A stretch of 64,000 nt of DNA, from the NCBI RefSeq assembly GCF_003334815.1, contig NZ_QOWO01000014.1; one strand, 5' to 3'. Shown here one piece after another: positions 16,121 to 16,712 of the stretch (position 1 is the stretch's first letter; each line of letters starts with the position of its first letter). The notes beneath the pieces were generated by a model. The model saw nothing but the letters and a program-made list of their open reading frames with translations, was not told where the DNA came from and did not search any database. The translations under genes were made by a program, and so were the position numbers. The DNA is from Escherichia coli. Its GTDB lineage: Bacteria; Pseudomonadota; Gammaproteobacteria; Enterobacterales; Enterobacteriaceae.

Positions 16121-16258
16121 TGGTTATCCCCGCTGACGCGGGGAACATAAGTTCGACAACTTAAAAAATGATAACAAGTCCGGTTTATCCCCGCTGATGC
16201 AGGGAACATAATAAAAACTTTAACTAGTTCGGTTTATCCCTGTTTTTACAAGGAATAT
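16121..16258 (-). CRISPR. Degenerate CRISPR remnant: three decayed type I-E repeats with 32-nt and 20-nt spacers
   Basis: TGGTTATCCCCGCTGACGCGGGGAACAT, CGGTTTATCCCCGCTGATGCAGGGAACAT and CGGTTTATCCCTGTTTTTACAAGGAATAT are mutated copies of the repeat at 16713-17107. Confidence 0.6.
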
Positions 16259-16712
16259 TAACTACACTCGATGTCTTTAGAATAAAAGACAATACGAATC
16301 GCACTTTATCAATTTTCACTTAAAGTATGAACTGGATATCTTTATTCATAAGAACTATTCATCAACAGCGTATAGAGGCGGTTATGTAAAACCACTCATT
16401 AGCCTCAAAACAAAGACAAACTTCCAGATTTATTACTTAACCAATGAATAACAAGCTTAAAAAATATACTGTTATTCTAAAGAAAAAATTAACAGGCATT
16501 AATTCAATATTAAAAAAACAATAGATTAAAATTTCTTAACGATTTAAGAATCATACAAATAACACTTTGATTAAATTTAATTTTTTGTATCGATAATTGT
16601 GAACCTCTCTGGCATGGAGAACTATTTTGAACATGAGGTGTTACGTGGATATGTTGCTTATTACAAGTACTGCTAATATAAAAACTTGAGAAAGAGATAA
16701 CGGGTTATATGG

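Follow-up and report, generated by a model that had tools for sequence, protein, structure and literature searches.

The CRISPR2.2 mini-array of Escherichia coli and its adjoining flank form a near-invariant segment beside variable AT-rich DNA

The intergenic region between ygcE and queE (ygcF) of Escherichia coli carries the CRISPR-II locus, whose three-repeat array is known as CRISPR2.2 (PMC4489801; PMC3903273). As published, this locus consists of three repeats with two spacers, termed "invariable spacers" (PMC4489801), a conserved non-coding separator of about 0.5 kb, and an array headed by leader 2.3, leaders having been assigned to CRISPR2.1 and CRISPR2.3 only (PMC3737337). The same intergenic region belongs to the 78 "promoter islands" that Ozoline and colleagues listed for E. 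coli (PMC2731890); it was entered as island 2901670_347, ygcE(+)/queE(-), "intergenic convergent", overlapping a predicted genomic island, and in Table 1 of PMC3661553 its H column reads "A", which stands for interaction with H-NS "according to all studies". All the structural elements of the published CRISPR-II locus are the same in the DNA analysed here, and the three-repeat feature and the AT-rich separator are the published CRISPR2.2 and its H-NS-bound neighbour, the same object, with no structural difference, as the CRISPR2.2/CRISPR2.3 pair (names of Diez-Villasenor et al. 2010; see also Touchon and Rocha 2010). They are already known: papers from 2009 to 2015 cover the array, the 0.5-kb separator and its binding by H-NS, and the feature as initially described adds nothing new to them. 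What wants explaining is a sharp conservation boundary, at about position 16370, within a supposed remnant.

Coordinates refer to the window, that is, the whole 64,000-nucleotide stretch of K-12-like E. coli chromosome that was analysed, in which position x corresponds to MG1655 (NC_000913.3) position x + 2,887,300; across the 638 bases of the region 16075-16712, a single base differs from K-12. The CRISPR segment is flanked by ygcE (14596-16074, + strand, with its stop codon at 16072-16074) and by queE (17447-18118, - strand). Directly past the ygcE stop, a GC-rich hairpin (16082-16107, + strand) was recognised from sequence and fold; it has no U-run, and the consensus scan called no terminator-like site there. 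The intact CRISPR2.3 array (16713-17107, - strand) contains 7 repeats and 6 spacers of 32 nt, its trailer repeat (16713-16741) having 2 mismatches, and the pattern search that describes it gave 0 matches in shuffled sequence. Leader 2.3, together with the remaining DNA up to the queE stop, occupies 17108-17446 (- strand) and is 93% conserved in E. albertii. The orientation of the repeats sets the crRNA sense on the - strand, so that the true leader is the one at 17108-17446, by queE, and the AT-rich block falls on the leader side of the mini-array. In the MG1655 annotation, no RNA, small-protein or other gene is listed in the ygcE-queE intergenic region, and PGAP annotation of other strains places a CRISPR label on the CRISPR2.3 array only. 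Rfam matches in the 64-kb window were sok (at 1-156), CsrB, GcvB and a tRNA, with nothing near threshold in the CRISPR2.2/separator region. On the far side of queE, the DNA at 18119-18400 is a second listed promoter island (queE/yqcG), and in several strains (loci L003, L087 and L090-L092) yqcG-ygcG is replaced by genes of the LemA family and with a TPM domain.

The repeat copies of CRISPR2.2 were compared, on the + strand, with the array consensus CGGTTTATCCCCGCTGGCGCGGGGAACAC. The initial annotation had noticed three degenerate repeats with one 32-nt and one 20-nt spacer after the ygcE hairpin, and the alignment bears this out: copies 1, 2 and 3 match the consensus at 25/29, 25/29 and 19/29 positions, respectively, and the exact 11-mer CGGTTTATCCC is shared by copies 2 and 3; 16121-16258 does resemble CRISPR repeats. 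Copy 1 (16121-16148, - strand) has one T deleted and 3 mismatches; its hairpin is intact, with a G>A change in the loop, and the T deletion damages the part that belongs to the 5' handle. Copy 2 (16181-16209, - strand) has 4 mismatches, and in its - strand RNA the stem has 6/6 pairs (one of them G.U) and the 5' handle AUAAACCG is intact. Copy 3 (16230-16258, - strand) carries 10 mismatches, every one of them GC to AT; in the - strand RNA its stem again reaches 6/6 pairs, two of which are compensated and one of which is a G.U, and its 5' handle is unaltered. Taken alone, the 19/29 identity of copy 3 is at chance level in 64 kb (a second 19/29 match lies at 49488), and the copy is credible because it holds the exact CGGTTTATCCC, lies on the same strand and stands 20 nt past copy 2; the 7 occurrences of this 11-mer in the 64-kb window all fall within arrays.

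Between copies 1 and 2, spacer 1 (16149-16180, - strand; 32 nt, GACTTGTTATCATTTTTTAAGTTGTCGAACTT in crRNA sense) was unvaried in 10 of 11 diverse strains, the remaining strain (L003) lacking it owing to a 61-nt deletion. Spacer 2 (16210-16229, - strand; 20 nt, AACTAGTTAAAGTTTTTATT in crRNA sense) showed no variant in the 11 strains. As expected of type I-E (repeat cluster 2), at least two direct repeats on one strand match the 29-nt consensus; with a unit of 61 nt (29-nt repeat plus 32-nt spacer), one CRISPR2.2 unit is regular and the other has the 20-nt spacer. The turnover of spacers between strains that characterises an adaptive array was not seen in CRISPR2.2. We rejected the idea that spacer 2 is a shortened duplicate of spacer 1, as the two match at only 12/20 positions (p = 0.24).

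Among complete E. coli genomes, 4124 of 5426 carry at least 80% of the region 16075-16712, and at least 80% of 16121-16375 was covered in 4024 of the 4165 genomes with a match to it. The initial annotation had proposed checking whether longer arrays occupy this site in other strains, and none was found among the loci read; the variants seen among these loci were a 2-repeat form, in which one repeat-spacer unit was lost (one strain), and a single merged array. One chromosome (NZ_AP042535.1) has an IS1 insertion, with ygcE, CRISPR2.2 and most of the AT-rich DNA gone and only 16651-16712 left, and in another (NZ_CP070920.1) a deletion truncates ygcE and puts queD and cysJ beside it. In strain HH45 (NZ_CP116411.1), the CRISPR-II region is homopolymer-rich and its repeats are garbled, which looks like uncorrected long-read error and makes this sequence unfit for comparison.

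The queE neighbourhood was also fetched from 80 species representatives, nearly all of them Enterobacteriaceae, and among these 80 loci no similarity to 16259-16712 was found outside E. coli. In E. albertii (L006), ygcE and its hairpin are followed by ATGGTTATCCCCGCTGACGCGG..., two more repeats and leader 2.3, while E. whittamii (L008) has the same first repeat as E. albertii and then the leader directly. Both the T deletion and the loop G>A change of copy 1 also occur beside ygcE in these two species and in the merged-array E. coli loci L001 and L094, and copy 1 is therefore the trailer repeat of an ancestral single array, an orthology that we did not find reported in the CRISPR2.2 literature. 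The earlier description of the feature as an eroded second array is partly right: its repeats are genuine CRISPR repeats, those of CRISPR2.2, but copy 1 belonged to the ancestral array and not to a separate one. The stretch 16149-16741, from spacer 1 through the CRISPR2.3 trailer repeat, was found in E. coli only, and some E. coli whose array is merged lack the separator block. A gain inside the species is the more parsimonious course; the question is not settled, since deletion between direct repeats is easy and the two-array state could be ancestral and have been lost several times.

An origin from a plasmid or phage was rejected, as no homologue was found and the three "plasmid" matches are E. 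coli chromosomes of 4.8-4.9 Mb. Three scans of viral contigs yielded nothing beyond one fragment of E. coli and two matches that probably arose by chance. The fragment (IMGVR_UViG_2531839665_000019, IMG/VR) is 94% identical over 2.3 kb to window 15838-18118, which comprises the whole CRISPR-II locus, and the matching stretch, though filed as viral, is E. coli chromosomal DNA. The other two IMG/VR contigs, unrelated and AT-rich, have an exact 24-nt match to spacer 2 plus TCTC (L099 3968-3991 and L100 4204-4227); in both of them the match encodes LVKVFIS, and the flanks (GAA and CAG) are non-PAM. These two matches are probably due to chance in AT-rich DNA.

The separator itself (16259-16712) measures 454 bp and has 28.2% GC, against 50.7% in the window, in agreement with the roughly 450 bp of very AT-rich DNA that had been noted ahead of the intact array. 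Next to copy 3 lies a flank of 111 nt (16259-16369; 30% GC) that is near-invariant; it is followed by variable AT-rich DNA (16370-16663; 27% GC), with a neutral level of diversity, which forms the bulk of the published promoter island. The last 49 nt (16664-16712), at the junction with the CRISPR2.3 trailer repeat, are conserved (2/49 segregating sites) and near-invariant, in contrast to the DNA immediately to their left. We placed the promoter island at about window 16347-16693 (U00096.2 coordinate + ~1,977, the offset being checked against the queE/yqcG island). The suggestion that the AT-rich tract is a target of H-NS finds its confirmation in the published table (PMC3661553), and we infer that this promoter-island DNA is silenced. 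As expected of a promoter island, it is AT-rich with a restricted phylogenetic distribution (28% GC vs 51% in the window; lacking in the E. albertii and E. whittamii loci and in other Enterobacteriaceae loci). Occupancy by H-NS and RNA polymerase, with little transcription, is the published hallmark of such DNA (PMC3661553; PMC2731890).

In the consensus scan, promoter-like sites were not enriched (3 found vs 4.4 expected) and there were no terminator-like sites, and a search with the IHF consensus gave chance-level results across the window. For the 111-nt flank (16259-16369), the consensus promoter scan reported nothing; inspection by eye picked out, on the - strand of the flank, a weak promoter-like site of the extended -10 type that falls below the threshold of that scan, TTCATA (16331-16326) being separated by a 17-nt spacer from TGnTAAAGT (16311-16303). 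Further decayed repeats in the AT-rich DNA were rejected as weak, the sole candidate being 16596-16624 (16/29; p about 0.03 before correction for multiple tests). This patch is GC-richer and matches at 15/19 positions in the core in K-12-like strains; in other lineages TGGC is replaced by ATAT and the resemblance is gone. It may reflect chance or a small conversion event.

Segregating sites were counted per segment in an alignment of eleven diverse E. coli carrying the region. Only 4 of 247 sites segregate in 16123-16369, that is, across the mini-array and the 111-nt flank, as compared with 50 of 294 in the adjacent AT-rich DNA (16370-16663), 50 of 339 in leader 2.3 (17108-17446) and 52 of 224 third codon positions of queE (Fisher p = 2e-10, 5e-9 and 4e-14, respectively). 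The diversity of this island is 5-9 times below that of queE third codon positions and of the neighbouring neutral DNA, and it is roughly ten times less polymorphic than the neighbouring, functional leader. Among the genomes with a match, 3993/4165 (96%) are at least 99% identical to the window over the island (searched as 16121-16375), against 2259/4159 over the adjacent DNA (searched as 16376-16663; 1205 fall below 95%) and 2635/4575 over leader 2.3. GC content is equal in the conserved and variable parts, so that base composition is not the cause of the contrast. The sole common polymorphism of the island, at 16136, is in phase with the haplotypes of both flanks (16084 to one side; 16610-16613, 16621 and 16665 to the other). 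Island and neighbours thus have one genealogy in common, which argues for constraint, rather than a separate sweep private to the island, as the reason for its near-invariance. "Decayed", the term first applied to this feature, fits it poorly, as synonymous sites are far less conserved than the mini-array and the 111 nt. In the CRISPR2.2 literature we found no report that conservation varies within the separator, and the promoter, terminator and Rfam scans gave no explanation of the function behind the conserved island.

Overall, the locus is best explained, with high probability, as the known CRISPR2.2, an H-NS-bound stretch of AT-rich DNA and CRISPR2.3 side by side, copy 1 being ancestral and the nature of the constraint being what we infer. 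On this explanation, copy 1 is the old trailer repeat of a single array older than E. coli, into which 16149-16741 was inserted, unless the same stretch was lost from the relatives by recombination between repeats. CRISPR2.3 is the active array, transcribed on the - strand from the leader beside queE, and the promoter-island DNA (about 16347-16693) evolves at a neutral rate. CRISPR2.2 takes up no spacers, yet the mini-array and its 111-nt flank are kept nearly invariant and are not freely decaying.

As to what is being held, we regard as improbable the reading of CRISPR2.2 as a maintained mini-array of the CreA/CreR kind, in which a - strand transcript starting in the 111-nt flank would be cut by Cas6e into two guide-like RNAs, with the 20- and 32-nt stretches as psi-spacers, and Cascade would bind a partly matching target without cleavage. 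The conservation of the mini-array fits a maintained crRNA-like element, with putative expression, and the conserved island coincides exactly with the mini-array and its upstream flank. All three hairpins have 6/6 pairs in the - strand RNA, and the two copies that need a handle, 2 and 3, have a perfect one, the only damaged handle being that of copy 1, which has no downstream spacer in the crRNA sense and so does not need it; the same asymmetry between handle and hairpin has been described for the psi-repeats of CreR and CreA. Degenerate repeats thus keep the upstream 5' handle and the downstream hairpin round a fixed psi-spacer (p 0.013-0.14), but this retention has to be read with caution: for the stem of copy 3 it falls short of significance when mutation is modelled with a transition bias (p about 0.09-0.14), other models giving 0.013-0.03, and the conservation of the handle is partly a matter of ascertainment, since an intact handle is how copy 3 was recognised. 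Cascade has a 6-nt periodicity, and a spacer of 20 nt, equal to 32 minus 12, fits it, which we counted for the crRNA-like reading.

The search for a target speaks against this reading. Neither psi-spacer has a conserved seed-plus-PAM target in the 64-kb window or in the 14-kb cas (iap-cysI) region of K-12, and these two regions contain no PAM-flanked site that either of them partly matches in the promoter of a cas or toxin gene. The sole match with a working PAM (psi-spacer 2, GAG, 16620-16639) has 8 matched positions, about one such match being expected by chance, and strains differ at position 2 of its seed (A or G at 16621); it sits in the same intergenic region and was treated as a chance match. 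Unlike the known CreA and CreR, which are found in or beside the cas operon, CRISPR2.2 lies about 24 kb away from cas, and the array next to it has none of these genes either. Strains devoid of cas genes, BL21 among them, have retained the element (PMC3737337).

A mini-array with a repeat of the same style, AT-shifted and stem-compensated, is present between cas3 and casA of K-12, is of the kind reported by Shmakov et al., and was counted in favour of the crRNA-like reading. This degenerate two-repeat element (L097 8482-8578; MG1655 2,884,481-2,884,577) consists of ACCTTCCCTACTTAAGTAGGGATAAACCG (L097 8482-8510), a 31-nt spacer and TCATTCCCGAAGTTATTTGGGATTTGCAG, with compensated stems. Its type matches the E. 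coli I-E mini-arrays of Shmakov et al. (2023); it runs in the direction of the "anti-Pcas" transcript and has a likely AAG-flanked partial target at about L097 8344. For CRISPR2.2, the most interesting version would be that 16123-16369 is a selected and expressed element, namely a cas-distal mini-array with fixed 20- and 32-nt guides through which Cascade would regulate, rather than cleave, a chromosomal or mobile-element target; we give this, too, only a small chance of being right. A second crRNA-like element, or a hidden RNA or DNA element, in K-12, the main type I-E model, would be cheap to test, and, if true, could alter readings of Cascade off-target binding and of competition between crRNAs.

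Just as doubtful is a role that would be unrelated to crRNA: the conserved island may act for ygcE, as a structured 3' UTR on the + strand, or may belong to some other RNA, for instance the predicted small RNA "HB_171", the CRISPR hairpins being reused as stem-loops. The ygcE hairpin lacks a U-run, which makes read-through into 16121 onwards plausible, the sRNA "HB_171" was predicted between ygcE and ygcF (PMC2731890), and both strands fold well (z about -5.4 to -5.7). These z-scores are driven by the palindromes of the repeats and do not discriminate between the strands, however, and in + strand RNA a C-A mismatch interrupts the stem of copy 2 and likewise that of copy 3; nor does the MG1655 annotation have an RNA or small-protein gene at the site. 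Small proteins, for which 16319-16224 (- strand, 31 aa), 16327-16389 (+ strand, 20 aa) and 16599-16676 (+ strand, 25 aa) were considered, were rejected on the grounds of only non-synonymous differences between strains (for the first two frames, hand-read from the alignment) and the want of good ribosome-binding sites.

We likewise consider it unlikely that CRISPR2.2 was once an independent second array, now eroded, with the AT-rich DNA on its right as a dead leader. The literature does count CRISPR2.2 as a separate array (PMC4489801; PMC3903273), and, given - strand transcription, AT-rich DNA does lie on its leader side, directly upstream of the first repeat in the transcription sense (16259-16369), with a leader-like GC content (28-30% vs 30% in leader 2.3). 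The "fossil leader" of the initial annotation nevertheless found little support, as 16259-16712 is not significantly similar to either leader 2.3 or leader 2.1 of K-12, although this test has low power and is a weak control, the genuine leaders 2.1 and 2.3 also failing against each other. Local alignments remained within the shuffle range, the resemblance of 16543-16575 to 17165-17226 being one of low complexity, and BLAST against the 80 species loci gave 0 hits to the flank of an array, so that relatedness to I-E leaders was not detected by these low-power comparisons. An eroded array is also at odds with spacers that never vary, with the fact that no longer array was seen, with the orthology of copy 1 and the single-array trailer repeat of the outgroups, and with the finding that the leader-proximal repeat is the most degenerate one, which reverses the usual pattern. 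A fossil, finally, is not expected to have a diversity 5-9 times below that of third codon positions.

Set against the described systems, CRISPR2.2 resembles CreA/CreR and the reported mini-arrays (Li 2021; Liu 2023 preprint; Shmakov 2023 preprint) in that degenerate repeats and a fixed spacer-like sequence are conserved between strains. It differs from CreA/CreR, which have two repeats and are cas-adjacent, in having three repeats and lying outside the cas operon, and no PAM-flanked partial target was found for it in the regions searched. With the ordinary "ancestral" spacers of trailer ends, CRISPR2.2 shares a leader-distal position and its presence in nearly all strains, but common descent alone does not explain a diversity 5-9 times lower than in neighbouring neutral DNA on the same genealogy. 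Among the E. coli promoter islands (Shavkunov 2009; Panyukov and Ozoline 2013), finally, the AT-rich DNA of the separator is itself on the list, and island 2901670_347 spans mainly its variable part, whereas the mini-array and most of the 111-nt flank lie outside.
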